Of a DNA stretch of 64,000 nt, positions 2,991 to 54,360 are shown in pieces. The stretch covers positions 4,030,001 through 4,094,000 of the forward strand of contig OZ296652.1 of NCBI GenBank assembly GCA_965655095.1, written 5' to 3'. Both the position numbers and the translations under genes were made by a program. Each line of letters starts with the position of its first letter. Position 1 is the first letter of the stretch. This DNA comes from Haplodiscus bocki. Lineage: Eukaryota. The notes under the pieces were generated by a model. That model was not told the DNA's origin. It saw nothing but the letters and a program-made list of their open reading frames with translations, and searched no databases.

Positions 2991-2999
2991 GGTAGCAAC

Positions 3000-3835: not shown

Positions 3836-3839
3836 TCAG

Positions 3840-10470: not shown

Positions 10471-10586
10471 AGGTGACAAAGATAGTATGCTGGTAGCTGA
10501 AAGAAGTGGTTTCTTTTTGCGAATGACCGTTTGGGAATGATTTTGGGGCTGCATTTGGTTAGTTGTAAACGCCATTTTTTTAGTCC

Positions 10587-11198: not shown

Positions 11199-11979
11199 AC
11201 AACGCGAACCAGTAGATAGGTTTTTGCAGACTCAATTGGACACGTTAGAATGAATACACCCGTTTTAAAAGTGATAAAAATTATAGATTGTTTTTTAGAT
11301 GGTCATGGTGTTTATACTAGTAAATAGGTAACTTTTAAATTGAAAACCTAAGCTAACCTTTTCCACAATCTCACAGAGTTCTCCAAGGTTAATTGGTACT
11401 GCAATAGATTTAACCATCACAGCTAACATCAGAACACAAAAAGATAACTAACAAGTAAACAAATTCCACCATTTAACAGAGAAACAGAAAGTGAACACTT
11501 TTTTTTCTTTTTTTTAAATTAGGCGTTTTCAGGCTAAAACATGGCAAACCAGCTTCCAATCGAAGTTTCAAATAAGAGTTTCACACCGCGTTAAATTTTG
11601 AATTAAAAACTTTACCACGTCGTAAATTTTGAATTGGCAAAAAACAAGGCGTTTGACTTTGAAAAAAAATTGTTTTCGTCTTGTCAGTTTTCGAAAATTT
11701 CGCTTTTTGAGATGAAAGTTTAATTTTATTAGAGTTTGAACAAAATTTACGGCTGAAGAGTACGCTTGAACTCATTTTATTTTGTAAAAACGACAGAGTT
11801 TCCATTCTTCATGAGTTTTTGAAAAACATGATTTTGATGGAAAACTTTCCGAAAAAGAGAAGAGTTTAAAAGAAATTTTTCAAAAAAATCGTTTTTTGAA
11901 CAAGCTTTTTTCTTTCAAAAAATACAAATACAACGTGTTAGATCTCAAATTAAACTTTTTAAAACTTGTAATGGTTTGA

Positions 11980-13400: not shown

Positions 13401-13446
13401 GTCACACTTCAACAAGGATGAAAAATTTGTCGTTCAAAAAAAGTTC

Positions 13447-16400
13447 AGCGCACTTGACACCTGGAATTGCACTGAGGACACTCAAAATCAATTGCTCCGG
13501 GAGATTGAAAGTCTTTTTGTGCTCTCAAAACTTCTGAGGACAATTTTCGTTTGCACTGTACACAATCCCAAATAGTTCAAAATTGTTTTTTTTTGTCATA
13601 CTGATAATCAGGTTTGAATGTGCTACATATTGTAGTTGCTCACAATTTTTTCAAAGCTGCTTGCAACTTAAAATTGAGTATTGTACAGGTGGTGAATTTT
13701 GCGATGGTTAGTTTTGAAAAACTCTGTAAGTGTAAATTGATTAACTTGTAGTTCAATATTTTTGACGGTGATGAAACGAGATTTTTCGTTTTGAGAATGG
13801 AACGCAAAATGAATGAATCTTTTTGGATGCCCAATGATATCTTATAGTAATGAGTTTAGAAGTTGTCTTTTGACTTTGTAGATCAAAGTCTATTTTTAGA
13901 TTTGTGTTACATGTTGAAAAATTACCGAGTAACTCTTGCTACATATTGTCAGCCATTTTTCCTTTTGCATTGGTGGAGTCAATTTGCTACAAACTTAACG
14001 TTACTTTCAGAATAATATCTTTTGCTCCTATGACTCAATTGCCTTCAGTCAATTGCAACGAGAAAACTACGTGTGAGATATGTGGTTTCCGAACAACAAC
14101 GCGAAATTTTGCTGGTCACAAGAAGTGGACATAGACACATTTCGTCTTCAACAAAACCTTACAGGACAATAGAAAACTCTAATAAAATTTCAAATTGATT
14201 TTTGTGTGTCTCCAAATACGAGAATCCACGGGCCACTCAACCAGAAAAACCAATTTGTTTATTCTTCCCAGGCAATATTGCGCTCCTGAAACGTATACGC
14301 GCTTTGAGCAAACTGATAGTTGCTTTTGCCAAGAAGTTGAAGGAAATTTTCTGGGCGCAGAAACTCAGAGAACACATATTGTTAGGAAAGTAACACTTTT
14401 CCAAAAAATTTTAAAATGCTATGTTCTTGCCAATAATCACGCTTGATTGTGCTACAGGTCATAATTACTTTCAAATTTTTTAAATATGTTTGCAACGTGA
14501 TATCGGTTCTGGTAGAAGTGGTGAATTCAGCGGTGGTTTTTGTTGACGACTTCTGTAAGTTCGAATTGATTAGCGAGTAGCTAAATTTTTTTCGAAGAAA
14601 AATTCCCAAGTTTTGTTGTTTTCGAAACGAGAAGCTGAAGGAAATTTTTTATCTGAATGTTCAATGATAACTTTATGGTAATGAGTAAAGAGGTCGCCTT
14701 TCGACTTGGTGGATCCAATCCTAAATTTGAGTTTTTGTAATTGGACCTGTAAACACTAGCTTGCCTTATCAAACAATTCGAAAATATCCCTCAAAACTAT
14801 CTCATAAAAGTCTCTAATTGATTGTTATGTCTCTCCAAATACAAAATCTTTTCGCCAATCAACCAGAAAAACGAATTTGGTATTTCTTCCCAGTGAATGT
14901 TGCGCACCTGACACGTGGAGTTTTCATGAGGACACTAATAACCAATTCTTTTAGGAGATTGAAAGCCTTTTTGTGCTTGCGAACTTTCTCAAGACACATC
15001 TCGTTTGCACATTACACGATCCCAATTAGTTCAAAAAAGTTTTTTTTGTTAAACTGACATTCAGATTTGAATGTGCTTTATATCACAGTTGCTCACAATT
15101 TTTACATACCTGCTTGCAACTTAACATTGATTCTTGTGGAGGTGGTGAAATTCGCGATGGTGTTTTCTGAAAAACTCTGTAAGTGTAAATTGATTAACTT
15201 GTAGTTCAATATTTTTGACGGTGATGAAACGAGATTTTTTTGTTTTGAGAATGGAACGAAAAAATGAATGAATCTATTTGGATGCCTAATGATATCTTAT
15301 AGTAATGAGCTTAGAAGTTGTCTTTTGACTTTGTAGATCAAAGTCTATTTTTAGATTTGTGTTACATGTTGAAAAATTACCGGGTAACTCTCGCTACATA
15401 TTCTTAGCCATTTTTCCTCTTGCATTGGTGGAGTCAACTTGCTACAAACTTGACGTTACTTTCAGAATAACCTTTTGTGCTCCTATCACTCAATTGCCTT
15501 CAGTCAATTGCAACGAGAAAATTACGTGTGAGAAATATGGCTTCCGAACTACGACAAGAAATCTTGCTGGTCACAAGAAGTGGACATAGACATATTTTGT
15601 CTTCAACAACAAGACAATAGAAAACTCTATTAAAATTTCTAATTGATTTTTGTTTGTGTCCAAATACGAGAATACATGGGTCACTCAACAAGAGGAACCA
15701 GTTTGTTTTTTCATCCCAGGTATTATTGCGCACCTGACACGTATACGCGCTTTGAGCAAACTGATAGTTGCTTTTGCCACGAAGTTGAAAGAATTTTTCT
15801 GCGCGCAGAAACTCAGAGAACACATTTTGTTTGGAAAAGAACACTTTTCCAAGAAATTTAAAGATGCTCTGCTCATGCCAATGCTCACGCTTGAATGTGC
15901 TACACGTCATAAGTACTATCAAACCTTTCACATGTGTTTGCAACAAGATATCGGTTCAGGTAGAAGTGGTGAGTTCAGCGATGGTTTCTGTTGATGACTT
16001 CTGTAAATTCGAACTGATTACCGAGTAGCTCAATCTTTTGGAAGAAAAAGTCCAATGATTTGTTGTTTTCAAAACGAGAAGCTGAAGGAAATTTTTTATC
16101 TGAATGTTCGTTGATAACTTTATAGTAATGAGTAAAGAGGTCGCCTTTCGACTTGGTGGATCCAATCCTAAATTTGAGATTTTGTAAATGGACCTGTAAA
16201 CACTAGCTTGCCTTATCAAACAATTTGCAAATATCCCTCAAACCTATCCCATAAAAGTCTCCAATTGATTGTTATGTCTCTCCAAATACAAAATCTTTTC
16301 GCCAATCAACCAGAAAAACGAATTTGGTATTTATTCCCAGTGAAAATTGCGCACCTGACACGTGGGGTTTTCTTGAGGACACTAATAACCAATTCTTTTA

Positions 16401-19400
16401 AGAGATTGAAAGCCTTTTTGTGCTTGCGAACTTTCTCAAGACACATCTCGTTTCCACACTACACGATCCCAATTAGTTCAAAATTGTTTTTTTTGTCATA
16501 ATGACATTCAGATTTGAATGTGTTTTATATCGCAGTTGCTCACAATTTTTACATACCTGCTTGCAACTTAACATTGATTCTTGTGGAGGTGGTGAAAATC
16601 GCGATGGTGTTTTCTGAAAAACTCTGTAAGTGTAAATTGATTAACTTGTAGTTCAATATTTTTGACGGTGATGAAACGAGATTTTTCGTTTTGAGAATGG
16701 AACGCAAAATGAATGAATCTTTTTGGATGCCCAATGATATCTTATAGTAATGAGTTTAGAAGTTGTCTTTTGACTTTGTAGATCAAAGTCTATTTTTAGA
16801 TTTGTGTTACATGTTGAAAAATTACCGAGTAACTCTTGCTACATATTGTCAGCCATTTTTCCTTTTGCATTGGTGGAGTCAATTTGCTACAAACTTAACG
16901 TTACTTTCAGAATAATATTTTTTGCTCCTATGACTCAATTGCCTTCAGTCAATTGCAACGAGAAAACTACGTGTGAGATATGTGGTTTCCGAACAACAAC
17001 GCGAAATTTTGCTGGTCACAAGAAGTGGACATAGACACATTTCGTCTTCAACAAAACCTTACAGGACAATAGAAAACTCTAATAAAATTTCAAATTGATT
17101 TTTGTGTGTCTCCAAATACGAGAATCCACGGGCCACTCAACCAGAAAAACCAATTTGTTTATTCTTCCCAGGGAATATTGCGCTCCTGAAACGTATACGT
17201 GCTTTGAGCAAACTGATAGTTGCTTTTGCCAAGAAGTTGAAGGAAATTTTCTGGGCGCAGAAACTCAGAGAACACATATTGTTAGGAAAGTAACACTTTT
17301 CCAAAAAATTTTAAAATGCTATGTTCTTGCCAATAATCACGCTTGATTGTGCTACAGGTCATAATTACTTTCAAATTTTTTAAATATGTTTGCAACGTGA
17401 TATCGGTTCTGGTAGAAGTGGTGAATTCAGCGGTGGTTTTTGTTGACGACTTCTGTAAGTTCGAATTGATTAGCGAGTAGCTAAATTTTTTTCGAAGAAA
17501 AATTCCCAAGTTTTGTTGTTTTCGAAACGAGAAGCTGAAGGAAATTTTTTATCTGAATGTTCGTTGATAACTTTATAGTAATGAGTAAAGAGGTCGCCTT
17601 TCGACTTGGTGGATCCAATCCTAAATTTGAGTTTTTGTAATTGGACCTGTAAACACTAGCTTGCTTTATCAAACAATTTGAAAATATCCCTCAAACCTAT
17701 CCCATAAAAGTCACCAACTGATTGTTATGTCTCTCCAAATACAAAATCTTTTCGCCAATCAACCAGAAAAACGAATTTGGTATTTATTCCCAGTGAAAAT
17801 TGCGCACCTGACACGTGGGGTTTTCTTGAGGACACTAATAACCAATTCTTTTAGGAGATTGAAATCCTTTTTGTGCTTGAGAATTTTCTCAAGACACATC
17901 TCGTTTCCACACTACACGATCCCAATTAGTTCAAAATTGTTTTTTTGTCATACTGACATTCAGATTTGAATGTGTTTTATATCGCAGTTGCTCACAATTT
18001 TTACATACCTGCTTGCAACTTAACATTGATTCTTGTGGAGGTGGTGAAATTCGCGATGGTGTTTTCTGAAAAACTCTGTAAGTGTAAATTGATTAACTTG
18101 TAGTTCAATATTTTTGACGGTGATGAAACGAGATTTTTTGTTTTGAGAATGGAACTAAAAAATGAATGAATCTATTTGGATGCCCAATGATTTCTTATAG
18201 TAATGACTTTAGAAGTTGTCTTTTGACTTTGTAGATCAAAGTCTATTTTTAGACTTGTGTTACATGTTGAAAAATTACCGAGTAACTCTTGCTACGTTTT
18301 CTCAGCCATTTTTCCTTTTGCATTGGTGGAGTCAATTTGCTACAAATTTAACGTTACTTACAGAGTAATATTTTTTGCTCCTATGACTCAATTGTCTTCA
18401 GTCAATTGCAACGAGAAAACTACGTGTGAGATATGTGGTTTCCGAACAACAACGTGAAATTTTGCTGGTCACAAGAAGTGGACATAGACACATTTTGTCT
18501 TCAACAGCAGGACAAAAGAAAACTCTAATAAAATTTCTAATTGATTTTTGTTTTTGTCCAAATACGAGAATACATGGGTCACTTAACAAGAAGAACCAGT
18601 TTGTTTTTTCATCCCAGGGATTATTGCGCACCTGACACGTATACGCGCTTTGAGCAAACTGATAGTTGCTTTTACCACGAAGTTGAAAGACTTTTTCAGC
18701 GCGCAGAAACTCAGAGAACACATTTTGTTGGAAAAATAACACATTTCCAGAAATTTAAAAATGCTATGCTCTTGCCGATAATCACGCTGCAAATTGCTAC
18801 ACGTCATAAGTACTATCAAATCTTTCACATATGTTCGCAACGTCATATCGGTTCTGGTAGAAGTGGTATATTCAGCGATGGTTTTTGTTGATGACTTCTG
18901 TAAGCTCGAACTGATTAGCGAGTAGCTCAATATTGTTGAAGAAAAAATCCCAAGATTTGTTGTTTTCAAAACGCAAAGTTGGAGGACTTTGTTTACTTGA
19001 ATGTTCAATGATAACTTTATAGTAGTGAGTAAAGTGTTCGTCTTTTGATTTGGTGGATCCAATCCTAAACTTGAGTTTTTGTAAAGCACCTGTAAACATT
19101 AGCTTGCCTCATCAAAAATTTTGAAAACATCCCCCAAAATTATCCCATAAAAGTCTCCAACTGATTGTTGTGTCTCTTCAAAAACAAAATCTTTTCGCCA
19201 ATCAACAAAAAGAACGAATTTGTTATTTCTTCCCAGTGAAAATTGCGCACTTGACACGTGGAGTTGCCGTGAAGACACTAATAACCATTTCCTTTTGGGA
19301 GATTGAAAGTCTTTTTGTGCTTGCGAATTTTTTCAAGACACATCTCCTTTGCACATTACACGATCCCAATTAGTTCAAAATAGTTTTTTTTGTTATACTG

Positions 19401-21368
19401 ACATTCAGATTTGAATGTGCTTTATATCACAGTTGCTCACAATTTTTACATACCTGCTTGCAACTTAACATTGATTCTTGTGGAGGTGGTGAAATTCGCG
19501 ATGGTGTTTTCTGAAAAACTCTGTAAGTGTAAATTGATTAACTTGTAGTTCAATATTTTTGACGGTGATGAAACGAGATTTTTCGTTTTGAGAATGGAAC
19601 GCAAAATGAATGAATCTTTTTGGATGCCCAATGATATCTTATAGTAATGAGTTTAGAAGTTGTCTTTTGACTTTGTAGATCAAAGTCTATTTTTAGATTT
19701 GTGTTACATGTTGAAAAATTACCGAGTAACTCTTGCTACATATTGTCAGCCATTTTTCCTTTTGCATTGGTGGAGTCAATTTGCTACAAACTTAACGTTA
19801 CTTTCAGAGTAATATTTTTTGCTCCTATGACTCAATTGTCTTCAGTCAATTGCAACGAGAAAACTACCTGTGAGATATGTGGTTTCCGAACAGCAACGCG
19901 AAATTTTGCTGGTCACAAGAAGTGGACATAGACACATTTTGTCTTCAACAGCAGGATAAAAGAAAACTCTAATAAAATTTCTAATTGATTTTTGTTTTTG
20001 TCCAAATACGAGAATACATGGGTCACTTAACAAGAAGAACCAGTTTGATTTTTCATCCCAGGGATTAATGCGCACCTGACACGTATACGCGCTTTGAGCA
20101 AACTGATAGTTGCTTTTACCACGAAGTTGAAAGAATTTTTCTGCGCGCAGAAACTCAGAGAACACATTTTGTTCGGAAAAGAACACTTTTCCAAGAAAAT
20201 TAAATATGCTATGCTCATGCCAATGCTCACGCTTGAATGTGCTACACGTCATAAATACTATCAAACCTTTCACATGTGTTTGCAACAAGATATCGGTTCA
20301 GGTAGAAGTGGTGAGTTCAGCGATGGTTTCTGTTGATGACTTCTGTAAATTCGAACTGATTACCGAGTAGCTCAATCTTTTGGAAGAAAAAGTCCAATGA
20401 TTTGTTGTTTTCAAAACGAGAAGCTGAAGGAAATTTTTTATCTGAATGTTCAATGATAACTTTATGGTAATGAGTAAAGAGGTCGCCTTTCGACTTGGTG
20501 GATCCAATCCTAAATTTGAGTTTTTGTAATTGGACCTGTAAACACTAGCTTGCCTTATCAAACAATTTGAAAATATCCCTCAAAACTATCCCATAAAAGT
20601 CTCCAATTGATTGTTATGTCTCTCCAAATACAAAATCTTTTCGCCAATCAACCAGAAAAACGAATTTGGTTTTTATTCGCAGTGAACATTGCGCACCTGA
20701 CACGTGGAGTTTTCTTGAGGACAATAATAACCAATTCTTTCAGGAGATTGAAAGCCTTTTTGGGCTTGCGAACTTTCTCAAGACACATCTCGTTTCCACA
20801 TTACACGATCCCAATTAGTTCAAAATAGTTTTTTTTGTTATACTGACATTCAGATTTGAATGTGCTTTTTATCACAGTTGCTCACAATTTTTACATACCT
20901 GCTTGCAACTTAACATTGATTCTTGTGGAGGTGGTGAAATTCGCGATGGTGTTTTCTGAAAAACTCTGTAAGTGTAAATTGATTAATTTGTAGTTCAATA
21001 TTTTTGACGGTGATGAAACGAGATTTTTTGTTTTGAGAATGGAACGAAAAAGTGAATGAATCTATTTGGATGCCCAATGATTTCTTATAGTAATGACATT
21101 AGAAGTTGTCTTTTGACTTTGTAGATGAAAGTCTATTTTTAGATTTGTGTTACATGTTGAGAATTTACCGGGTAACTCTCGCTACATATTCTTAGCCATT
21201 TTTCCTTTTGCGTTGGTGGAGTCAATTTGCTACAAACTTAACGCTACTCTCAGAATAGTAGTTTTTGCTCCTATCACTCAATTGCCTTCAGTCAATTGCA
21301 ACGAGAAATTTACGTGTGAGTTATGTGGTTTCCGAACAACAACGCGAATTTTTGCTGGTCACAAGAAC
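13447..21368. repeat. Array block 1: five ~1.45-kb units (A + A' + B with ~1.04 kb deleted) plus a partial unit
   Basis: Junction spacings of 1455, 1445, 1453, 1444 and 1446. Each unit carries the deletion joint TTAGATTTGTG|TTACATGTTGA or a close variant. Confidence 0.95.
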
Positions 21369-24300
21369 TGGACAGAGACACATTTCGTCGTCAACAAAAC
21401 CTTACAGGACAATAGAAAACTCTAATAAAATTTCGAATTGATTTTTGTGTGTCTCCAAATACGAGAATCCGTGGGTCACTTAACAAAAAAAAGCAAATTG
21501 TTTATTCATCCCAGGGATTATTGCCCATCTGACACGTATACGCGCTTTGAGCAAACTGATAGTTGCTTTTGCCAAGAAGTTGAAAGACTTTTTCAGCGCG
21601 CAGAAACTCAGAGAACACATTTTGTTGGAAAAATAACACATTTCCAGAAATTTAAAAATGCTATGCTCTTGCCGATAATCACGCTCCAAATTGCTACACG
21701 TCATAAGTACTATCAAATCTTTCACATATGTTCGCAACGTCATATCGGTTCTGGTAGAAGTGGTATATTCAGCGATGGTTTTTGTTGATGACTTCTGTAA
21801 GCTCGAACTGATTAGCGAGTAGCTCAATATTGTTGAAGAAAAAATCCCAAGATTTGTTGTTTTCAAAACGCAAAGTTGGAGGACTTTGTTTACTTGAATG
21901 TTCAATGATAACTTTATAGTAGTGAGTAAAGAGGTCGTCTTTTGATTTGGTGGATCCAATCCTAAACTTGAGTTTTTGTTATAGCACCTGTAAACATTAG
22001 CTTGCCTTATCAAAAATTTTGAAAACATCCCTCAAAATTATCCCATAAAAGTCTCCAACTGATTGTTGTGTCTCTTCAAAAACAAAATCTTTTCGCCAAT
22101 CAACAAAAAGAACGAATTTGTTATTTCTTCCCAGTGAAAATTGCGCACTTGACACGTGGAGTTGCCGTGAAGACACTAATAACCATTCCCTTTTGGGAGA
22201 TTGAAAGTCTTTTTGTGCTTGCGAATTTTCTCAAGACACATCTCCTTTGCACATTACACGATCCCAATGAGTTCAAAAAAGTTTTTTTGTCATACTGACA
22301 TTCAGGTTTGAATGTGCTACATATCGTTGTTGCTCACCATTTTTTCATACCTGCTTGCAACTTAACATTGATTCTTGTAGAGGTGGTGATTTTCGCGATG
22401 GCTGTTTTTGAAGAACTCTGTAAGTGTAAATTGATTAACTTGTAGTTCAATTTTTCTGACGGTAAAGAAGCGAGATTTTTTGTTTTGAGAATGGAACGAC
22501 AAGTGAATGAATCTAATTGGAAGCTCAATTATCTCTTTATAGTAATGAGTTTAGAAGTTGTCTTTTGATTTTGTATATCGAATTCTATTTTTAGATTTGT
22601 GTAATAGAACCTGTAAAAACATGCTTGTTTCATCAAGAAAAAGAATATATCCCGCAAACTCTCAAAGAAACAATTGAGATATTTTTTGGAAAAACTCACT
22701 TCCTCTTGGAGGATTTAACGCGGCTCTGTCTTCAAATCGGCAGACTGGAAAACCTTGATTGCAAGAATCTTTTGGTCGGAGCTTCTGCTAACACGTTTTG
22801 TTCGATGCTGGGACTGCGAAATGTCGAAATTGATGTGGTAAAGTTAACTATTTCGGTTTGTTTCGTCCGAAAGCTCCGTTGGAATTTAATCGCAAAATGA
22901 ACTTAGTTTGGAAAAATTGAGAAAACTGCTTTTTGACAGACATCAATTAATTTTGGTCGGGAAACTTCGCAAAATTAATTCTCAGGTGGAGTAGCGGTAA
23001 ACGCGATGCAAATTGGTTAAGGGTTTCAATTTTCAGCGATGGCAACACTGGCAACGGCTTTAATGCGTTTGGTTGGACTTATTTACGCCTTTTTGGATAA
23101 AATAATTTGAAACTGTAGTTCAGTGGTTAGAAAGCTCAGATCACGTGATGTATTTGTTGGTGAGTACTGTCATGCAGGTCGTCGTAACAAAACTTTTAAC
23201 TCCCATACCACAATGGCTGTGCAAAGATCATTTTTTTCTTTCATCTTATGGATGTGTTCTGATTGAAAGTTGAGATGAAACTAAGAACATAAAGAAACTT
23301 AACTTTCTCAGTCAAGTTGTCTCATTGTCTAGGGATTGCGTTTCACTTGAATTATTTTCCAGAGAAACTTTCGCTTTATCGGGCGAATTCGTGCGACTCG
23401 ATTCAAATTATCAAACACACTGTCTGGGATAGTTAATTCACGAGATTCCTTTTTTCCGACCAACTGTCACCATTCAGAGGAAACTCGTTCCACTTGAATT
23501 GGTTTTACAGAAAGAGTTTTTTATCCAAAGAATTAGTATCTCAATTGTGTGTAGTTGGTTTTAAGATGAAAGAGAATAAAAGACAAGTCCTTTTATGGTT
23601 GGTCCTTCCTCTAGCGTTCGTGATTCCCTTTACGATCTTTTCGTACATGTTGAAAATTTACCGAAGAACTCTTGCTACATATTCTCAGCTATTTTTCATT
23701 TTGCATCGGTGGAGTCAATTTGCTACAAACTTAACGTTACCTTCAGAATAATATTTTTTGCTCCAATCACTCAATTGCCTTCAGTCAATTGCAACGAGAA
23801 AGTTACGTGTGAGAAATGTGGTTTCCGAACTACAAAACGTAATCTTGCTGGTCACGAGAAGTGGACATAGACACATTTTGTCTTCAACAACAGGACAATA
23901 GAAAACTTTAATAAAATTTCGAATTGATTTTTGTTTGTCTCCAAATACGAGAAGCCATGGGTAACTTAACAAGAAAAAAAATTTGTTTATTCATCCCAGG
24001 GCTTATTGCGCACTTGACACGTATACGAGCTTTGAGCAAACTGATAGTTGCTTCTGCCAAGAAGTTGAAAGAATTTTTCTGCGCGCAGAAACTCAGAGAA
24101 CACATTTTGTTCGGAAAATAACACTTTTCCAGAAAATTTAAATATGCTATGCTCATGCCAATGCTCACGCTTGAATGTGCTACACATCATAAGTACTCTC
24201 AAATCTTTCACAACTCTTTGGAACGTGACGTCGGCTCTGGTAGAGGTGGTGAATTTAAAGGTGAATATGTTTCACTATTTCTGTAAAATCGAACTGATTA

Positions 24301-39300: not shown

Positions 39301-39399
39301 CCCTCCACTCAATTGCTTTTGTCCAATGGCTACGAGAATTTTACGTGCAAGAAGTGTAGTTTCCAAACTACAACTCGAAAACTTGCTCGTCACAGGAAG
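21369..39399. repeat. Array block 2: six ~2.49-kb units (A + A' + B) and one 3.11-kb unit (A + A' + A'' + B at 33,806-36,914)
   Basis: Spacings of 2493, 2484, 2485, 2484, 2491, 3109 and 2485. The ~620-bp module beginning ...GATTTTTGTGTGTCTCCAAATAC occurs twice per unit, and three times in the 3.11-kb unit. Confidence 0.93.
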
Positions 39400-42300: not shown

Positions 42301-45300
42301 ATTCAACTTTCAGCGTTGACAACACTGGTACCGAATTTAATGCGAATGTTCGGACTTAGTTATGTCTTTTCGGATAATTAAACTTGAAACTGTGGTTTGG
42401 TGGCTAGAAAGCCCAGATCACGTGATGTATTTGTTGGTGAGTACTGTCATGCATGTCGTCGTACCAATGCTTTTAACTCCCATACCACAATGGCTGTGCA
42501 AAGATCATTTTTTCTTTCAATTTATGGAAGTCTTCTGAATGCTAGTTGAGATGAAACTAAAGAAGATAAAGAAACGTAACTTTCTCAGAAAAGTTGTCTT
42601 TTTGTCCGGGGAATTCGTTTCACTTGGGTTTATTCTCCAGAGAAACTGTCGCTTTATCGGGAGAACTCGTTCGGTTTGATTCAATTTATCAAACACGCTG
42701 TCTGGTATAGTTAATTCACGTGATTCCTTTGGTCCAACCATCTGTCACCTTTCAGAGTGAACTCGTTCCACTTGAATTGGTTTTACAGAAAGGCTTTTTC
42801 ATCCAAAGAATTAGTGTTTCAAATGTATATAGTAGGTTTTGGGATGAAAACAATTAATTGACTTGTCCCCTTTTAGTTGGTTGTTTCACCGGCGACTCGT
42901 AATTTCCTTCATGGTCTGTTCTTTATAAATTAAAATATTACGAAGTAACTCTTGCTATAAACCTCGCTGTTTTTCCTTTTGCCTTGCTGCAGTCAATTAG
43001 CTACAAAATTGCCGTTTCTCTCAGAATATTCTTTTTTGCCCCTACCACTCAATTGCTTTTGCCCAATCGCTATGAGAATAATATGTGTAAAAAATGTGGT
43101 TTCCAAACTACAACGCGAAAACTTGCTCGTCACAGGAAGTGGACATAGACCCAATTTGTCTTCAACAAAATCTTCCACGACAATTGAAATCTCTAATAAA
43201 ATCTCGAATTGTTTTTTATGTGCTCCAAATACGAAAATCCTTGGGTCTATCAACAACGAAAACTAATTTGCTTACTCTTCCCAGGGAATATTGCGCACCT
43301 GAAACGTATACGTGCTTTGAGCAAACTGATAGTTGCTTCTGTCGAGAAGTTGAAAGACCTTTTCTGCGCCCAAAATTTCAGAGAACACATTTTGTTCGGA
43401 CGGTGAACGTTTCCAAAAACAGTTGAAAAGGCTATGCTCTTGCCGATAATCACGCTGCATTGTGCTACACGTCATAGGTGCTATCAAATCTCTCACATAT
43501 GTTTGCCACGTGATATCGGTTCTGGTAGAAGTTTTGAATTCAGCGATGGTTTTTGTTGACGACTTCTGTAAGTTTGAATTGATTAGCATGTAGCTCATTT
43601 TCTGATGGAAAAATCCCAAGAGTTGTTGTTTCCAAAACGTAATGTTCAAGAAATTGTTTGCTTGAATGTTCAATGATATTTTTATAGTAATGAGTAAAGA
43701 TGTTATCTTTTGACTTCATAGATCCAATCCGATTTTTGGGTTACAGCAATGGAACCTGTAAACACTTGCTTGCTTCATCAATATATTTGCAATTATCACG
43801 CAAAATCTTGATGAAGAAACTGAGATTCTTTCTGGAAACACTCAATGACCCTTGGAGAAGAAAGCGCTGCTGTGTCTTCAAATTTCACAATAGGAAAAAG
43901 TTGACTGCTTGAAACTTTTCGTTGGAACGTTTGCTAACACAATTTATTCGATACTGGGACTGCAAAATGTCAAAAATGTTGTGGCAAAAGTAACTATCTA
44001 CGTTACTTTCGTCCGTAAACTCCGCTGGTCTTTCCTCGTAAAAAGAATGTAGCTTGGAAAAACTGACACATTTTCATTTTGACAGACATCAACTACTTTT
44101 AGTAATTAAAATTTAGAAAATTTTTGTGAGGTGGAGTAGCGGTGAAAGCGATGCAGATTGGTTGGGGATTTCAACTTTCAGCGTTGACAACACTGGTACC
44201 GAATTTAATGCGAATGTTCGGACTTAGTTATGTCTTTTCGGATAATTAAATTTGAAACTGTGGTTTAGTGGCTAGAAAGCCCAGATCACGTGATGTGTTT
44301 GTTGGTGAGTACTGTCACGCATGTCGTCGTACCAATACTTTTAACTCCCATACCACAATGGCTGTGCAAAGATCATTTTTTTTCTTTCATTTTATGGAAG
44401 TCTTCTGATTGCTAGTTGAGATGAAACTAAAGAAGATAAAGAAACGTAACTTTCTCAGACAAGTTGTCTTTTTGTCCGGGGAATTCGTTTCACTTGGGTT
44501 TATTCTCCAGAGAAACTGTCGCTTTATCGGGGGAATTCGTTCGACTTGATTCGAATTATCAAACACACTGTCTTTGATAGTTAATTCACGTGATTCCTTC
44601 TTTCCGACCATCTGTCACCTTTCAGAGGGAACTCGTTCCACTTGAATTGGTTTTACGGAAAGGCTTTTTTATCCAAAGAATTAGTGTTTCAAGTGTATAT
44701 AGTTGGTTTTAGGATGAAAACAATTAATTGACATGTCCTCTTTTAGTTGGTTTTTTCTCCGGCGACTCGTAATTTCCTCCATGGTCTGTTCTTTATAAAT
44801 TAAAAAAATTACGAAGTAACTCTTGCTATAAACCTCGCTGTTTTTCTTTTTGCCTTGCTGCAGTCAAATAGCTACAAAATTACCGTTTCTTTCAGAATAT
44901 TCTTTTTTGCCCCTACCACTCAATTGCCTTTGCCCAATCGCTACGAGAAGAAAATGTGTGAAAAATGTGGTTTTCAAACTACAACGCGAAAACTTGGTCG
45001 TCACAGGAAGTGGACATAGACCCAATTTGTCTTCAACAAAATCTTCCACGACAATTGAAAGCTCTAATAAAAGCTCGAATTGTTTTTTATGTGCACCAAA
45101 TACGAAAATCCTTGGGTCTATCAACAACGAAAACTAATTTGCTTACTCTTCCCAGGGAATATTGCGCACCTGACGCGTGTATGTGCTTTGAGCAATCTGA
45201 TAGTTGCTTCTGTCGAGAAGTTGAAAGACCTTTCCTGTTCGCAAATTTTCGGAGAACACATTTTGTTTGGACGGCGAACGTTTCCAAAAGGAGTTATAAA

Positions 45301-48300
45301 TGCTATGCTCTTCCCGATAATCACGCTCCAATGTGATACACGTCATAAGTGATATCAAATCTTTCACATATGTTTGCAACGTGATATCGGTTCTGGTAGA
45401 AGTGGTGAATTCAGCGATGGTTTTTGTTGACAATTTCTGTAAGTTTGAATTGATTAGCATGTAGCTCTTTTTTTTTGATGGAAAAACCCCAAGTTTTGTT
45501 GTTTCCAAAACGTAATGTTCAAGGAATTTGTTTGTTTGAATGTTCAATGATATTTTTTTAGTAATGTTTAAAGAGTTTGTCTTTTGACTTTAAAGATCCA
45601 CTCCTATTTTTGGGTTAAAGCAATGGAACCTGTAAACACTTGCTTGCTTCATCAATATATTTGCAATTATCACGCAAAATCTTGATGAAGAAACTGAGAT
45701 TCTTTCTGGAAACACTCAATGACCCTTGGAGAAGAAAGCGCTGCTGTGTCTTCAAATTTCACAATAGGAAAAACTTGACTGCTTGAAACTTTTCGTTGGA
45801 ACGTTTGCTAACACAATTTATTCGATACTGGGACTGCAAAATGTCAAAAATGTTGTGGCAAAAGTAACTATCTACGTTACTTTCGTCCGTAAACTCCGCT
45901 GGTCTTTCCTCGTAAAATGAATGTAGCTTGGAAAAGCTGAAACATTTTCATTTTGACAGCTATCAACTACTTTTAGTAATTAAAATTTGCAAAAATATTT
46001 CTGAGGTGGCGTAGCGGTCAAAACGATGCAGATTGGTGAAGGAATTCAATTTTCAACAAATAGAACACTGGTACTGAGTTTAATGCGATTGGTCTGACTT
46101 AGTGTCGCTTTTTGGATAAATTATTTTGAAACTGTGGTTTACTGGTTAGAAAGCTCAGATCACGTGATGTATTTGCTCGTGAGTACTGTCATGCATGTCG
46201 TCGTACCAAGACTTTTAGCGCCTATATCACAATGGCTGTGCAAAGATCATTTTTTTCATTTTTTGGAAGTGTTTTAATTGACAGTTGAGATGAAGCTAAA
46301 GAACATAAACAAACTTAACTTTCTCAGTCAAGTTGTCTCCTTGTCAGGGGATTTCGTTTCACTTGAATTTATTCTCCATAGAAAATGTCGCTTTATCGGG
46401 GGAATTCGTTCGGCTTGACTCAATTTGTCGGACACGCTGACTGGGATAGATGATTCACGTGATTCCTTTTTTCAGACCGTCTGTCACCATTCAAAGGGAT
46501 TTCGTTCCACTTGAATTGGTTTTACAGAGAGTTTTTTTATCCAAAAAAATTGTTTTTCAATTGTTTATAGTTGGTTTAAAAAAAACTAATTGACTAGTCC
46601 TCCTATAAACGGTCTTTTCTCTAGCAATCCGTAATTTCTTTCATGGTCTTTTCTTTATAAACTAATAAAATTACGAAGTGACTCTTGCTATATATCTCGC
46701 TGTTTTTTCTTTTGCCCTGCTGCAGTTAGTTTGCTAAAAAAATTACCGTTTCTTTCAGATTTTGCTTTTTTGCTCCTACCACTCAATTGCCTTTGCCCAA
46801 TCGCTACGAGAATAATATGTGTGAAAATGTGGTTTCCAAACTACAACGCGAAAACTTGCTCGTCACAGGAAGTGGACATAGACTCTTTTGTCTCTAACAA
46901 AACCTTCCAGGATAGTAGAAATCTCTATTAAAATCTCGAATTGGTTTTTCTGTCTCCCCAAAGACGGAAGTCTTTAGGTGACTCAACAATGAAATTGAAA
47001 TTGTTTACTTTTCCCAGGGAAATTTGCGCGGCTGACACGTATACGTGCTTTGAGCAAACTGATAGTTGCTTGTGCCGACAAGTTGAAAGACCTTTAATGC
47101 GCGCAAAACATCAGAAAACACATTTTGTTAGGACAGTGAACGTTCCCAGAAATTTTAAACGTGCTATACTCTAGCCGATAATCACCCTTGAATGTGCTAC
47201 ACGTCATTAGTATTCTCAAATCATTCACATATAATTGCAACGTGATATCAGATCTGGTAGAAGTGGAGAATTAAGCAAAGAATATAGTTGGCGAGTTCCC
47301 TAAGTTCGAACTGATTGACATGTAGCTCATTTTTTGATGAAAAAATCCCAAATTTTGTTGTTTCCAAATTGAAAAGTTTGAGCAATTTGTTTATCTGAAA
47401 TTTCAATGATATCTCTATTGTAATGAGTAAAGAGATTGTCTTTTGACTTTACAGATCCAATCCTAATTTTGGTTTGAGGCAATGGAACCTGTAAACACTT
47501 GCTTGCTTCATCAATGTATTAGATGTTACCCCGCAGAATAACAATAAAATAACTGAGATCTTTTCTGGAAAGACTCATTGAGTCTTGGAAGACAAAACGC
47601 TGCTGTGTTTTCAAATTGCAAGATGAGAGAAACTAGATTGCTTGAAATTTTGTGTTGGCATCTTCACTAACACATATGATTCGACGCAGGGACTGCAAAA
47701 TGTCGAAAAGGATGTGGTAAAATTAACTGTCTACGTTACTTTTGTCCGTAAACTCCGCTGGTCTTGCATCGTAAAATGAATTTAGCTTAGAAAAACTGAG
47801 AAAAATTCAATTTGACAGACCTCAACTACTTATAGTCCTAAAAAATTGACAACTTAATTGCGATGTGGAGTAGCGGTGAAAGCGATGCAGATTGGTTAAA
47901 GAATTCAATTTTCAGCGATGACAAAACTGGTGCCCAACCTAATGCGATTGGTCAGACTTAGTTACGTCTTTTAGGAAAACTAAATTTGAAACTGTGGTTT
48001 AGTGGCTAGAAAGCCCAGATCACGTGATGTGTTTGTTGGTGAGTACTGTCACGCATGTCGTCGTACCAATACTTTTAACTCCCATACCACAATGGCTGTG
48101 CAAAGATCATTTTTTTTCTTTCATTTAATGGAAGTCTTCTGATTGCTAGTTGAGATGAAACTAAAGAAGATAAAGAAACGTAACTTTCTCAGACAAGTTG
48201 TCTTTTTGTCCGGGGAATTCGTTTCACTTGGGTTTATTCTCCAGAGAAACTGTCGCTTTATCGGGGGAATTCGTTCGGCTTGATTCGAATTATCAAACAC

Positions 48301-51300
48301 ACTGTCTTTGATAGTTAATTCACGTGATTCCTTCTTTCCGACCATCTGTCACCTTTCAGAGGGAACTCGTTCCACTTGAATTGGTTTTACGGAAAGGCTT
48401 TTTTATCCAAAAAATTAGTGTTTCAAGTGTATATAGTTGGTTTTAGGATGAAAACAATTAATTGACATGTCCCCTTTTAGTTGGTTTTTTCTCCGGCGAC
48501 TCGTAATTTCCTCCATGGTCTGTTCTTTATAAATTAAAAAAATTACGAAGTAACTCTTGCTATAAACCTCGCTGTTTTTCCTTTTGCCTTGCTGCAGTCA
48601 ATTTGCTACGAAATTAACGTTCTTTCAGAATATTCTGTTTTGCTCCTACCACTCAATTGGCTTGGCCCAATCGGAACGAGAATATTACGTGTGAAACATG
48701 TGTTTTCTAAGCTTCAAGGCGAAAATTTGCTCGTCACAGAAAGTGGACATAGGTACATTTTGTCTTCAACAAAATCTTCCAGGCCAAAAGAAACCTCTAT
48801 TGAAATTTTGAATTGGTTTTTGTGTCTCTCCAAATACGAAACTCTTTGGGCCACACAACAAGGAAAACGATTTTGTTTACTCTACCCCGGGATAATTGCG
48901 CACCTGAAACCTATGTGTGCTTTGAGCAAACTGATAGTTGCTTCTGCCGAAAAGTTGAAAGATCTTTTCTTTGCGGAAAACTTGAGAAAACACACTTTGT
49001 TCAAACAGAGAATTTTTCCAAAATTTTTAAAAAAGCTATACTCTAGCCGATAATTACGCTTGAATGTGCTACACGTCACAAGTACTCCAACTTCTTTCAC
49101 AAATGTTTCCAACGTGACATCAGTTCAGGTAGAAGTGGTGAATTGAGTGATGCATATGGTTGACGATGAACGTAAATTCGACGTGATTAGCTTGTAGCTC
49201 ATTTCTTTGATGGAAAAATCCCATGAGTTGTCGTTTCCAAAACAAAATTTTCAAGGAATTTGTTTGTTTGAATGTTCAATGATATCTATGTAGTAATAAG
49301 TAAAGAGGTTGTCTTTTGACTTTATAGATCCAGTCCTAATTTTGGGTTAAGTCAATGGAACCTGTAAACATTTGCTGGCATCATCATTATTTTTGGTTTT
49401 ATCCCACAATATGTTGATAAACGAACTGAGATCTGTTCCGGAAACACTCATTGACTCTTGGAGGATAAGGCCCCGCTGTGTACTCAAATCGCAAGATGGG
49501 AAAAACTTGATTGCAGGAAACTTTTTTGGAACCTTTGCTAACACCTATTCGTTGATGCTGGGACTGCAAAATTTCGAATTTTTGTGGTAAGCTTAACTAT
49601 CTACGTTACTTTTGTCCGTAAGATCCTCTGGTATTTCATCGTAAAATGAATTTAGCTTGGAACAACTGAGAAATTTTCATTTTGACAGACATCATTAACT
49701 TCTAGTCCTCAAAATTTGCAAATTTAATTGCGAGGTGGATTAGCGTTGTAAGCGATGCAGATTGGTTAGGGAATTCAATTTTCAGCGATCACAACACTGG
49801 TACTGAACTTAATGCGATTGGTCGGACTTATTGACATCTTTTCGGATAATTAAATTTGAAACTGTGGTTTAATGGTTAGCAAACTCAGATCACGTGAGGT
49901 CTTTGTTGGCGAGTACTGTCATGCATGTCGTCGTACCAATACTTCTAGCTCCCATACCAAAATGGCTGTGCAAAGATCATTTTTTCTTTCATTTTACGGA
50001 AGTGTTCCAATTGACAGTTGAGATGAAACTAAAGAAGATGAAGAAACCTAACTTTCTCAGACAAGTTGTCTCATTGTCAGCGGAATTCGTGCCAATTGAT
50101 ATTATTCTCCAGACAAACTGTCGCTTTATCGGGGGAAATCGTTCGGCTTGATTCAATTTATCAGACACGCTGTCTGGGATAGTTAGTTCGTGTGATTCCT
50201 TTTTTCAGACCGCCTGTCACCATTCATTGGAAAATTGTTCCACTTGATTTGGTTTTACAGAAAGGCTTCTTCATCCAAGTAATTGGTATTCTATTTGTAT
50301 ATAGTTGGTTTTAAGATGAAGATGTTATTTGACAAGTCCTTTTGTAGTTGGTTTTTTCTCTGGCGGTTCGTAAAATCTTTCATGGTTTTTCGTTACAAGA
50401 TAAAAAAAATACGAAGTAGCTTTTGCTATAAATCTCGTTATTTATGCTTTTGCATTGCTGCAGTCAATTTGCTACGAAAATAACATTCTTTCAGAATATT
50501 CTGTTTTGCTCCTACCACTCAATTGGCTTGGTCCAATCGGATCGAGAAAATTACGTGTGAAACATGTGTTTTCCAAACATCAAAGCAAAAATTTGCTCGT
50601 CACAGGAAGTGGACATAGACACATTTTGTCTTCAACAAAACCTTCCAGTCCAAAAGAACCTTTTATTAAAAGCTCGAATTGGTTTTTTTGTCTCTCCAAA
50701 TACGAAACTTTTTGGGCCACACAACAAGGAAAACGTTTTTGTTTACTCCAACCAGGGGTAATTGCGCACCTGACACCTATATGTGCTTTGAGCAAACTGA
50801 TAGTTGCTTCTGCCGAAAAGTTGAAAGATCTTTTCTTTGCCCAAAACTTGAGAAAACACACTTTGTTCGAACAGAGAAATTTTCCAGAATTTTTAAATAA
50901 GCTTTACTCTAGCCGATAATTACGCTTGAATGTGCTACACGTCATAAGTACTCTCAAATCTTTCACATATGTTTGCAACGTGATATCAGTTCAGGCAGAA
51001 CTGGTGAATTGAGTGACGAAAATGGTTGACGATGTCTGTAAATTCGAACTGACTAGCATGTAGCTCATTCCTTTAACTGAAAAGTCCAAAGATTTGTTCC
51101 CTTTCCAAACAAAAAAATTAAAGAAATTGTTTGTTTGAATGTTCAATGATATCTATGTAGTAATAAGTAAAGAGGTTGTCTTTTGACTTTATAGATCCAG
51201 TCCTAATTTTGGGTTAAAGCAATGGAACCTGTATACACTTGCTTCCTTCATCAATATATATGATATTATCCGGCAAAGAAATGATAGGTAAACTGAGATC

Positions 51301-54300
51301 TCTTCTGGAAAGATTCGCTGACTCTTGGAGGATAAAACGCTGCTGTGTCTTCAAACCGCAAGATGAGAAAAACTTGATTGCAAGAATTTTTTTGTTGGAA
51401 CCTTTGATAACACGTTTTATGCGATGCTGGGACTGCAGAATGTGGAAAATGTTGTGGTAAAAAAAACTATCTACGTTACTTTCGTCCGTAAACTCCTTTG
51501 GTATTTCATCGTAAAATGAATGTCGCTTGGAAAAACTGACACATCTTCTTTTTGACAGACATCAACTATTTTTAGTCATTAAATTCTGCAAACTTTTTTG
51601 TGAGGTGGAGTAGCGGTGAAAGCGATGCAGATTGGTTGAAGATTTCAGCTTTCACCGTTGACAACACTGGTACCGGAATTATTGCGATTGTTCGGACTTA
51701 GTTATGTCTTTTCGGATGATTAAATTTGAAACTGTGCTTTAGTGGCTAGAGAGCTCAGATCACGTGATGTATTTGTTGGTGAGTACTGTCATGCATGTCG
51801 TCGTACCAAGATTTTCAGCTCCCATATCACAATGGCTGTGCGAAGATTTTTTTTCATTTTTTGGAAGTGTTCTGATTGACATTTGAGATGAAACTGAAGA
51901 ACATAAAGAAACTTAACTTTCTCAGACAAGTTGTCTTTTTGTCAGGGGAATTCGTTTCACTTGAGTTTTTTCTCCAGAGAAACTGTCGCTTTATCGGGGG
52001 AATTCGTTCGGCTTCATTCAATTAATCGGACACGCTGTCTCGGAGAGATAATTCACGTGATTCCTTTTTTCAAACCGTCTGTCACCATTCAAAGCGACTT
52101 TGTTCAACTTGAATTGGTTTTACAGAGAGGCTTTTTTATCCAAAAGTTTAGTACTTCAATTGTGTCTAGTTGGTTTGAAGACGAAAAAGTTAATTGACAA
52201 GTCCTCTTTTAGTTGGTCTTTTCTCTGGTGGCTCGTAATTTATTTCATGGTCTTTTCTTTATAAGTAAACAAAAGTTACGAAGTAACTCCTGCTGTAAAT
52301 CTCGTCGTTTTCTCTTTTGCCTTACTGCAGTCAATTTGCTAAAAAATTACCGTTTCTTTCAGAATGTTCTTTTTTGCTCCTACCACTCAATTGCCTTGGC
52401 CCATTCGCAATAAGAATCTTACGCCTGAAAAATGTGGTTTCCAAACTACAACGCGAAACTTGCTAATCACAAGAAGTGGACATACACACATTTTGTCTTC
52501 CACAAAAAACTTCCAGGACAGGGGAAACCTCTTTTAATATCTGGAATTGGTTTTTGTGTCGCTCCAAATACGAAAGTCTTTGGGGCACTTAACAACAAAA
52601 ACGAGTTTGTTTACTGTTCACGGGGAACATTGCGCACCTGACACGTATACGTGCTCTGAGCAAACTGACAGTTGTTTCTGCCGAGAATTTGAAAGACCTT
52701 CTCTGTGCGCATGATTTCAAGGAACACATTTTGTTCGGACAATGAACCTTTCCAAAAATTTTATAATTGCTATGATTTTGCCGATAATCGCGCTTGAATG
52801 TGCTACATGTCATAAGTGCTCTCAAATTTTTCACATATGTTTGCATCTTGATATCGGTTCTGGTAGAAGTGGTGAATGCAGCGATGGTTTTGCTTGACAA
52901 TTTCTGTAAGCTTGAATTGATTAGCATGTATCTCATATTTTTCATGGGAAAGTCCCAAGATTTGTTGTTTCCGAAACGAAAAGTTTGAGGAATTTGTTTC
53001 TTTGAATGTTGAATGATATCTATTGAATAATAAGGAAAGATGTTTTTCTTTGATTTTATAGATCCAAACGAGAGTTTGGGTTGCAGCAAAGGATCTTGTA
53101 AGCACTTGCTTCTTTCATCAATATATTTCATATTATCCGGCAAAATATCAACACAATAACAGATCTCGTCTGGAAAGTCTCACTGGCTCTTGGAGGATAA
53201 AAAGCAGTTGTGTCTTCAAACCGCAAGATGAGAAAAATTTGATTGCAGGAAATTTTTTGTTGCAACTTTTGCTAACACATATTGTTCGATGCTGGGACTG
53301 CAGAATGTGGAAAATATTGTGGTAAAATTAACTATCTACTATACTTTCGTCCGTAAACTCCTTTGCTATTTCATCGTAAAATGATATTAGGTTGGAAAAA
53401 CTGAGAAATCTTCATTTTGACAGACATCAACTACTTTTAGTCATTAGAATTTGCAACTTTATTTGTGAGTTGCATCAGCGTTGAAAGCGATGTAGATTGG
53501 TTAAGGAATTGAAATTTCAGCGTTGACAACACTGGTATCGAATCTAATGCGATTGGTCGGACTTAGTTATGTCTTTTCGGATAATTAAGTTTGAAACTGT
53601 GGTCTAGTGGTTAGAAAGCTCAGATCACGTGATGTAATTGTTGGTTAGTACTGTCATGCATGTCGTCGTACGAATACTTTTATTTCCCATACCACAATGG
53701 CTGTGCAAAGACCATTTTTTTCTTTCATTTTACGGAAGTCTTCTGATTGTTAGTTGATTGCCAGTTGAGGTGAATCTAAAGAAGTTAAAGAGAATCAACT
53801 TCTTCAGACAAGTTGTCTCCTCGTCGGAGGAATTCGTTTCAATTGAGTATTATCTCCAGACAACCTGTCGGATTATCGAGGGATTTCTTTCTGCCTGATT
53901 CATTTTATCAGAGACGCTGTATTGGTTTGTTAATCCAGTTGATTCCTTTTAATAGACCGTCTGCTACCATGGAAGGTGAACTTGTTCCACTTGAATTGCC
54001 TTGACAGAAAAGATGTTTTTCCTTTTAAATTTTTTTTTAAAACGTATATAGTCGGTATTTAAGATCAAAGAATTCAATTGACAAATCCTCTTATGGTTGG
54101 TGTTTCCTCTAGTTGTTCGTGATTCCTTTTATGGTCTTTCCTTTTATGTTGAAAAAATTAACAAGTAACTCTTGCTACATAAACTTGCCATTTTTGTTTC
54201 TGTATTGCTGCAGTCAAACTGCTACAAAATTAACGTTCCATTCAGATCTTTCAGTTTTGCTCCTGTCAATCAATTGTTTTCGCTCAATCGGAACCAGAAA

Positions 54301-54360
54301 GCTACGTGTGAAAATTGTGGTGTCCAAACTACAAAGCGTAATCTTGCTCGCCATAAGAAG
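39400..54360. repeat. Array block 3: eight ~1.87-kb units (A + B), the presumed ancestral unit
   Basis: Spacings of 1869, 1871, 1871, 1862, 1871, 1866, 1867 and 1884, with a single A module per unit. Confidence 0.95.
52480..54010 (-). pseudogene. Two uncharacterised minus-strand Polinton ORF remnants forming the body of each array unit (representative copy)
   Basis: Recurrent translations across units: a long ORF (...DVCQKxxFSxFP...KGSNKKFPAIKFFPSCDL..QQRFILQE...SKCLQVPLP..GSTKSK..FTHYY) followed by a small Cys-containing ORF (MTCSTFKRDYR.EHSIF...CQVRN...DP.ILVF...VEDK.CLCP). I found no intact copy in any unit. Confidence 0.6.

Follow-up and report, generated by a model that had tools for sequence, protein, structure and literature searches.

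Organisation and assembly of the array

The window, a 64,000-nt stretch of a Haplodiscus bocki contig, contains an array at 13448..54360 (plus strand) of 20 full units and one partial unit (u0–u20), all head-to-tail on a single strand and located 4.04–4.08 Mb from the start of the 119-Mb contig. Every unit closes with the first 29 codons of pPolB, and at the common junction the end of polB codon 29 is joined inside an upstream Cys-rich ORF (ORF-X). A sequence-only reading of this DNA had described ~21 head-to-tail copies ending in the pPolB start. In agreement, the polB-start module was located 21 times, ending at 14125, 15580, 17025, 18478, 19922, 21366, 23861, 26345, 28829 and 31313 (u0–u9) and at 33804, 36914, 39399, 41268, 43139, 45010, 46872, 48743, 50609, 52476 and 54360 (u10–u20). 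The uniform ~1.87-kb unit of that reading was not borne out, since just eight of the 20 full units have that length (1862–1884 bp); five measure 1444–1455 bp, six 2484–2495 bp and one 3110 bp, giving four lengths in all. Two checks on the window had also been proposed: self-comparison revealed the array, with self-alignments reaching 15 kb at 85% identity, far above chance, and TRF, which has a period limit of 500, reported no repeat over it.

The units fall into blocks, all on the plus strand. Sub-array I (13448..21366) consists of the partial u0 and of u1–u5 (1444–1455 bp), which have two copies of module A and the polB-start module, with 1.04 kb of the middle deleted. Sub-array II (21367..33804) comprises u6–u10 (2484–2495 bp), with two A modules, the middle and the polB start; it is the youngest block, with a mean difference of 3.4% over the last 1250 bp. 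Unit u11 (33805..36914; 3110 bp) has three A modules and is likely a crossover product, its middle/polB part forming the deepest branch within the array, while u12 (36915..39399; 2485 bp) has two A modules and then a middle of the sub-array III type. Sub-array III (39400..54360) holds u13–u20 (1862–1884 bp) and is colinear with dispersed elements; its average difference is 14% for u13–u19 and 21% for u20. The unit types appear to derive from one 1.87-kb Polinton segment through the internal duplication of 620 bp and the loss of 1.04 kb.

In the last unit, u20, ORF-X is cut by the unit junction and retains its 5′ half only (52477..52815, minus strand), and an ORF-Y remnant lies at 52806..53435 (minus strand); both right ends are approximate. 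ORF-Y has 208 codons in unbroken dispersed copies, and this minus-strand gene points away from polB, matching the divergent layout proposed earlier. ESM Atlas gave PC4-like matches for ORF-Y with scores up to 0.79, a weak lead only. Among 30 ORF pieces from the window, Pfam returned LINE domains and weak sub-threshold matches, nothing more; DUF2838, seen below cut-off in three of the 30 within the decayed ORF-X/ORF-Y region, was set aside. Rfam returned 0 matches, and a bacterial promoter scan was disregarded as not applicable to the host. As the sequence-only reading had anticipated, the unit aligns contiguously to the sequence that precedes polB in dispersed elements: the last unit (52506–54498) aligns whole to the C6 element at 66%, and positions 2–2014 of the last-unit query (2410) match C2:151.54 Mb at 69%.

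It is extremely improbable that the array is an assembly artefact. Some tracts are 98–99.7% identical (e.g. 2188 bp at offset 2491) and none of the listed contigs spans the whole array, as an artefact might entail, but there is no N inside the array, u12 and u20 are wholly unique at the 31-mer level, and four read runs contain 75–80% of the words sampled from 36000–45000. The junction at 36914, the only unit junction bridged among the listed contigs, was crossed in 4/4 runs by contigs of 1.3–2.4 kb with 0–2 differences. Short-read contig depth, compared over 21,001–41,000 (20 of the 41 kb), tracks the assembled multiplicity: in run X4, parts present in 3.8, 3.0 and 3.5 copies in the window have depths of 3.9x, 3.0x and 3.9x, respectively; the depth check of copy number suggested earlier thus fits the assembly over this part. 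The four runs represent at most two samples of one study and may come from the assembled sample. A one-unit assembly error in sub-array II is possible.

The source family and the flanks of the array

A C11 element of ~18.8 kb, within the 15–20 kb taken as the approximate size of such elements, has terminal inverted repeats (TIRs) with (AGT)n ends and an identical hexamer on either side, i.e. a 6-bp target-site duplication, which is unclear for two other elements inspected. The C6 copy matched PF03175 (protein-primed DNA polymerase B; E=2e-6, above cut-off) with an ORF that maps to window positions 55667–57375. The integrase matched PF00665 (E=1e-10), and a candidate A32 packaging ATPase, a partial ORF, matched PF04665 below the curated cut-off (E=0.004). 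The Polinton origin claimed from the sequence is therefore upheld by the pPolB and integrase profile matches, the AGT-ended TIRs and the 6-bp duplication. Candidate ORF pieces for the major and minor capsid proteins and the protease had no informative match in Pfam or PHROGs, nor did the protease candidate in the PDB, and calling the source element a virus rests on family membership. The family is large, with 489 exact genome matches to one 20-mer. In the available text of PMC8097293, Polintons/Mavericks likewise have TIRs with AGT-repeat ends, 6-bp target-site duplications, pPolB and an rve integrase, and most copies are degraded; for the A32 ATPase the match here is weak. In contrast to that description, the array-bearing copy is shortened and dead, and none of the libraries searched confirmed capsid and protease genes for the family.

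The array sits in a cluster of nested Polintons, and the copy that bears it is not intact: it has a right TIR remnant only, its left ~4 kb is missing and its polB is broken. On the left lies a shortened Polinton (2061..13447), whose minus strand carries remnants of the integrase and the ATPase and in which neither the left TIR nor the capsid region was found. It includes a separate 4.39-kb tandem duplication (2646–11417, 95.7%), and integrase remnants occur at 1096–1692 and 2186–2542. This flank belongs to another Polinton variant, without the first ~40 bp of the unit, and the stretch 13290–13470 differs in variant from the unit start; structurally distinct, the flank abuts a derived unit that carries the deletion. 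On the right, the last unit continues into the remaining polB (54274..57375, plus strand), itself broken downstream of the first 29 codons by frameshifts and deletions of ~63 bp and ~1.16 kb. Beyond it is the right TIR remnant (57658..57877), which matches the TIR of the C2:151.55 Mb element at 76% over 225 bp. Two tracts are common to the array locus and a neighbouring Polinton, and the polB tract 54515–55640 is 81–83% like that element. Parental flanks on both sides, as first proposed, are thus not supported, since the left is another variant and not the parent of the unit start, and part of the right polB is common to the neighbouring element. In a comparison with 16 more loci, the right flank was distinctive only in the 1.1-kb neighbour-like tract, and the left flank did not sort by variant at positions below about 13,100; the idea that both flanks are one variant holding a foreign core was unsupported.

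Common descent, decay and exchange among the units

A junction query gave 19 full-length matches, all within the array, among the 40 candidates scored from 79 in a first look; the remaining 21 matched one half only. The 18-mer offered earlier as a junction tag is exact at only 5 of the 20 junctions. There is a single unit junction, and it occurs nowhere else among the scored genome matches. No clear microhomology was seen where polB codon 29 rejoins the point 1.87 kb upstream. In trees, a single branch separates the 15 long units from 26 other copies (support 100/99) and, without module A, from 18 other copies (100/100). The single junction and single clade agree with the earlier claim of one origin amplified in place. 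The stem of the long-unit clade is 0.14 changes per site, which is partly subfamily divergence, and the crown depth is about 0.16.

The polB start codon is missing from 21/21 units, while 16 of 24 dispersed copies have it according to a pattern search. ORF-Y is broken in 15/15 long units, with a frameshift near the start in every one. Differences fall evenly over codon positions in u12–u20 (0.33/0.33/0.34), compared with 0.30/0.26/0.44 in 19 dispersed copies. The dN/dS ratio is 0.77 for u12–u20 and 0.77–0.95 across unit groups, and because the codon-position shares are flat, we put values below 1.0 down to the simple counting method. Together, the shared gene-breaking lesions and the even divergence indicate that the founder was already dead and that the copies decayed where they lie. 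Amplification under selection for ORF-Y was ruled out by the breakage of this gene in all long units and by the flat shares.

Units are about 65–72% identical to the dispersed copies found. They differ from each other by ~0 to ~29% (70–100% identity), compared with 12% for typical dispersed copies. Given this spread, amplification has gone on over a long time. Young tracts of 96–99.7% identity occur at offsets of 1, 2, 3, 4, 5 and more units, some units share identical 700-bp runs, modules of the same units give discordant identities, and identity between non-adjacent units is mosaic.

Origin of the array and comparison with known systems

We consider it probable that these 21 decayed copies, with one junction and one ancestor, were multiplied in place by unequal exchange and gene conversion after the death of the element. 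A Polinton inside the nested cluster would have decayed, and non-homologous break repair would have linked polB codon 29 to a site 1.87 kb upstream of it, module A (620 bp) being duplicated at roughly that stage. The array would then have grown by unequal crossovers that spanned one, two or more units, the 1.04-kb deletion founding sub-array I, and the 1.87-kb units may reflect secondary loss of one A. Exchange with neighbouring Polinton copies would have replaced sequence at the left edge, in part of module A2 and over 1.1 kb of polB. The array can be explained without any host function. The mechanism proposed here is the one described for TE-derived satellites in the available texts of PMC5932611, PMC12628747 and PMC9659126. 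In model organisms, unequal exchange is inefficient between units 15–25% apart, so other amplification routes may have contributed.

Internal tandem duplications of at least 500 bp occur in three of nine Polinton loci not selected for repeats, and C1:20.4 Mb carries a five-copy 8–11 kb array. Two internal repeats at other loci have copies 24–28% apart inside otherwise little-decayed elements. Breakpoints differ at every locus examined, and a common breakpoint hotspot was rejected. The other arrays have 2–5 units, longer and younger, and only one array of ~20 short units exists among the loci seen; chance alone may therefore not explain its size. To say that the birth of a satellite is preserved at its source locus goes too far: this array has considerable age and has undergone heavy reworking, and internal arrays also occur at other Polinton loci. 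It is rather unlikely that Polintons are a recurrent satellite source through an element-tied route, with this array as the oldest stage, possibly kept as a two-strand source of small RNAs. As element-tied routes, pPolB template switching and recombination among hundreds of copies can be named.

Less likely still is that the host keeps the array as a silencing locus, where transcription of both strands from the repeated, putative divergent promoters would supply small RNAs against the abundant Polintons. Every unit contains the stretch that separates two divergent genes, the target family is large, the array is long-lived, with turnover, among nested Polintons, and in Drosophila virilis tandem repeats of TE origin are a source of piRNAs (available text of PMC12910113); yet at ~65–72% identity to dispersed copies targeting would be poor, and the non-coding middle is deleted in 6/21 units. 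Very unlikely, too, is that the repeats were made during Polinton replication, by pPolB template switching or as concatemers, and integrated as a block. Internal tandem repeats do recur in the family, the two with copies 24–28% apart look as if different elements had recombined, and the first junction could have arisen so. However, breakpoints differ at each other locus, the polB and ORF-Y lesions are common to all units tested, divergence is without codon bias, and a replication origin of all copies is refuted by their age spread, from identical 700-bp runs to ~29% difference. Serial capture of units from a range of Polinton variants, in the manner of a memory array, would suit unit differences above those of typical dispersed copies and the other-variant sequence in module A2 and the left edge, but is scarcely credible given the fully supported single clade, the common junction, the lesions held in common and divergence without a coding signature.

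The locus is a TE-derived large-unit tandem array, a clear, modest case of a transposon becoming satellite-like DNA: its head-to-tail units are TE-homologous and non-coding, with one founding junction and inter-unit exchange. Classical satellites have hundreds to thousands of copies, whereas here there are 21, with the junction not found elsewhere among the 40 scored candidates. The size is that of a macrosatellite (1.4–3.1 kb units, 41 kb at one locus), but macrosatellite units are expected to be homogeneous, and here four unit lengths and 70–100% identity occur. The human macrosatellites D4Z4 and DXZ4 similarly have few-kb units in tens of copies at one locus; they show high homogeneity, and an open gene persists in D4Z4, whereas the present array varies in both length and sequence and all of its tested gene copies are broken.

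Among TE-derived arrays, the Drosophila hobo array (13–19 copies), the R1 and Bari1 satellites and internal-to-internal tandems, as presented in the main text of PMC5932611, share with ours a single founding junction, expansion ascribed to unequal exchange, subsequent deletions that expand in turn and, for hobo, a comparable copy number. In contrast, the unit of our array is an internal piece that has neither termini nor a target-site duplication, and it is Polinton-derived, old and diverged; the word ‘polinton’ has 0 occurrences in that main text. According to the main texts of PMC12628747 and PMC9659126, in which Polinton/Maverick is unmentioned, almost any TE part can be tandemised, with NHEJ then NAHR proposed. 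The TE-graveyard satellites they describe resemble ours in arising in a nest of decayed elements and differ from it in that the monomer here is 1.4–3.1 kb in 21 copies only. The kind of array is thus well known, and the Polinton case was not found in print: no Polinton-derived satellite was reported in the literature searched, which consisted of main texts and included few subscription papers.

The array reveals neither a new gene nor a new system or function. The source sequence, founding junction, rearrangements and duplication ages are all readable in one fully assembled case, a test bed for the start and turnover of kilobase-unit satellites. With the younger 2–5-copy arrays in sister elements, it forms an age series within one genome. 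Local amplification also inflates Polinton copy counts taken from reads or matches.

Assembly and structure of the array

The array (window positions 13,448–54,360) is real and well resolved. It contains no N, and four short-read contig runs of one study (X1–X4), possibly made from the assembled sample and therefore a check of the assembly and not of the population, hold 75–80% of the words sampled from 36,000–45,000. Over 21,001–41,000 (20 of the 41 kb), all 30 bins were covered in all four runs. Contigs of 1.3–2.4 kb bridge the unit junction at 36,914 with 0–2 differences in 4/4 runs, the only unit junction bridged by a listed contig among the 21,001–41,000 pieces. In X4, single-copy contigs had a depth of 48–58 and three repeated contigs depths of 205, 160 and 206, i.e. 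ratios of 3.9×, 3.0× and 3.9× compared with 3.8, 3.0 and 3.5 copies of their 31-mers in the window. The ratios were 3.9× and 2.9× in X1 (expected 3.8 and 3.0) and 2.7× and 3.6× in X2 (expected 3.0 and 3.4); X3 was left out because its depth was too uneven. Contig depth in these three runs agrees with window multiplicity over 21,001–41,000, supporting the copy number. An assembly error of one unit among near-identical units is possible.

The sequence-only reading had proposed about 21 uniform 1.87-kb units derived from a Polinton. Its count and unit content were borne out, with 21 copies of the polB-start module located, but the units fall into four length classes spanning 1444–3110 bp: u1–u5 (1444–1455 bp), u6–u10 and u12 (2484–2495 bp), u11 (3110 bp) and u13–u20 (1862–1884 bp). 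The 1.87-kb form is colinear with dispersed elements (Polintons elsewhere in the genome). In unbroken copies it comprises the 5′ half of the Cys-rich ORF-X and the whole 208-codon ORF-Y, both on the minus strand, followed by ∼840 bp without a conserved ORF and then 29 codons of polB. Module A, the first 620 bp, is repeated once or twice in longer units, and the 1.45-kb units additionally lack 1.04 kb of the middle. ORF-X has at least three length variants (L040, L058–L062 and L001); since a Cys motif is repeated within it, these may be repeat-mediated deletions.

The array works like a TE-derived satellite and fits that description, while its copy number falls short of that of classical satellite DNA. 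Since its units lack the homogeneity of a macrosatellite, the earlier label 'macrosatellite-like' is fair for size only. In Drosophila, tandem arrays that derive from TEs and grew from a single junction have been described, among them a hobo array of 13–19 copies and tandems of the internal-to-internal type (PMC5932611). The word Polinton is absent from the main texts of PMC5932611, PMC12628747 and PMC9659126, and no Polinton-derived satellite was found in the literature searched (supplements and most subscription journals lay outside it). Within that literature, the array is new as to its source element and ordinary as to mechanism.

Single origin and turnover of the units

A 281-bp query across the unit junction gave 79 candidates in a first look, 40 of which were scored. 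The 19 full-length matches all lie in this array, and the remaining 21 match one half of the query only. No clear microhomology was seen at the breakpoint in comparison with the closest dispersed copy. A single branch separates the 15 long units, which retain the middle, from 24 dispersed and two neighbouring copies (100/99), and again from 18 others when the middle and polB-start modules alone are used (100/100). In the latter tree, midpoint-rooted and omitting the six short units that lack the middle, the stem measures 0.14 changes per site and the crown is about 0.16 deep. Sequential capture of units from different elements is rejected, because among the scored candidates the full junction occurs only in the array and the long units form one clade against the copies sampled.

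Over the last 1250 bp, u6–u10 differ by 3.4% and u13–u19 by 14%; u20 differs from u13–u19 by 21%, and u11 from u12–u20 by 25%. Units one to five or more positions apart share tracts of 600–2200 bp at 96–99.7% identity, with exact identical runs of up to 719 bp. The modules are discordant: identity between u6 and u7, for example, is 98% in the middle and 85% in module A1. Unequal exchange and gene conversion would leave such a pattern, and we infer them to be the mechanism. The second junction, produced by duplication of module A, is present in 13 array copies. Since these include the deepest branch, the 1.87-kb units may have arisen secondarily, by loss of one A; at its 3′ end the A of u15 resembles the duplicate (88%) more than A1 (76%), which is no more than suggestive of such a loss.

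Coding decay and the array flanks

Judging from the reading frames, the founder was dead before the array grew, and the units appear to have been free of coding constraint since. ORF-Y has a frameshift near its start in 15/15 long units, each with 1–6 stops, and the polB start codon is missing in 21/21 units compared with a pattern-found start in 16 of 24 dispersed copies. Differences among u12–u20 are spread evenly over codon positions (0.33/0.33/0.34), compared with 0.30/0.26/0.44 and a dN/dS of 0.40 in 19 dispersed copies. Simple dN/dS within the array is 0.77–0.95, not 1, which counts against an absence of constraint, but we read this as method bias.

Parental flanks on both sides, as originally suggested, were not simply recovered. 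On the left, the flank is a different variant at the unit start: it lacks the 288-bp ORF-X segment in which the unit begins, as do the neighbour (the plus-strand Polinton adjoining on the left) and 5/5 dispersed loci chosen because they resemble the flank. Positions 13,290–13,470 share 69–74% identity with these flank-similar loci versus 53–55% with unit starts. The unit starts best match the dispersed locus L001 (67–69%), in which the sequence continues across the unit start without a break. Near 13,450, inside module A, the flank meets a unit that is derived and deleted. Leftwards of this region the flank shows no grouping by variant, so this edge may be either a patch or an entirely different element. 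The second junction is also present in the neighbour, together with an A2 (duplicate) module that shares 78–93% identity with that of the array in sliding windows, although most of the neighbour's middle is only 54–65% alike. On the right, polB at 54,515–55,640 is neighbour-like (81–83%, versus at most 78% to 22 other loci), and beyond 55,640 the similarity drops to 69%. Exchange between neighbours, in either direction, is the best reading of the flank, A2 and polB tracts.

The locus and tandem amplification in other Polintons

Polinton pieces are nested here over ∼90 kb, and the window (C5:4,030,001–4,094,000 of a 1.5-Gb genome) lies where this nest ends. The order is a minus-strand Polinton broken by a complete 17.7-kb Polinton, the plus-strand neighbour (about −6226 to 2055), the array-bearing element (2061–57,877) and a LINE (58,694–62,943). 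The LINE is fairly young, with a zinc-knuckle ORF1, endonuclease, reverse transcriptase and a few stops and frameshifts; an assembly gap (62,957–63,156) directly follows it. At 1059–2055, an inverted copy of an element's left part forms the right end (integrase fragment and TIR). Likewise, the right end of an element at C2:151.5 Mb (L067–L069) is a ∼5.6 kb inverted copy of its left part.

The family is abundant, with 489 exact genome matches to one 20-mer (control, 0). Dispersed copies are ∼18.7 kb with TIRs, and clean AGT-repeat ends with a 6-bp target-site duplication were seen in one of three elements compared. Dispersed copies encode pPolB (PF03175) and an rve integrase, and for A32 the match was weak; capsid and protease were unconfirmed, the candidate ORF pieces giving no informative hit in Pfam or PHROGs and the protease candidate none in PDB. 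A 28–29 bp minisatellite lies inside the TIRs of the subfamily of a C11 element (L039:2000–2460, L041) and also forms free arrays elsewhere (L072). The C6 copy adjoins a second Polinton-like element (L038:2675–9841), which is of a different kind and whose reading frames are long and open.

Sequence comparison indicates that internal tandem amplification of Polintons recurs in this genome, with different breakpoints each time. Among nine Polinton loci fetched for other reasons, three have an internal tandem duplication of at least 500 bp; in another two, tandem repeats lie in the flanking non-Polinton DNA. Three loci chosen for clustered matches carry young arrays in the assembly (96–99.9% identical): 6–7 kb ×3 and 4.5 kb ×2 at C3:101.3 Mb (L063–L066, 101.31–101.35 Mb); five internal copies of about 8–11 kb (8.3–11.1; 98.7–99.9%) at C1:20.4 Mb (L099–L105, 20.40–20.46 Mb), in an element that also has a 2.78-kb duplication and, towards its left end, at least four copies of 2.28 kb; and 5.7 kb ×2 at C1:187.8 Mb. 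Among the 100 matches listed, out of 489, three clusters have same-strand spacing below 12 kb and none below 5 kb. Of the Polinton arrays examined, the one in the window is the oldest and has the most copies, and its element also carries a separate 4.39-kb tandem duplication of the ATPase region (2646–11,417; 95.7% overall, 99.6% over 1.9 kb). Polintons at L063–L066 (the C3 locus above), L077–L078 and L111–L113 show internal tandem duplications of 2–7 kb, each with its own breakpoints. Tandem duplications of 1.1 kb inside Polintons at L044 and L047, with two copies only 72–76% alike, possibly reflect offset recombination between different variants.
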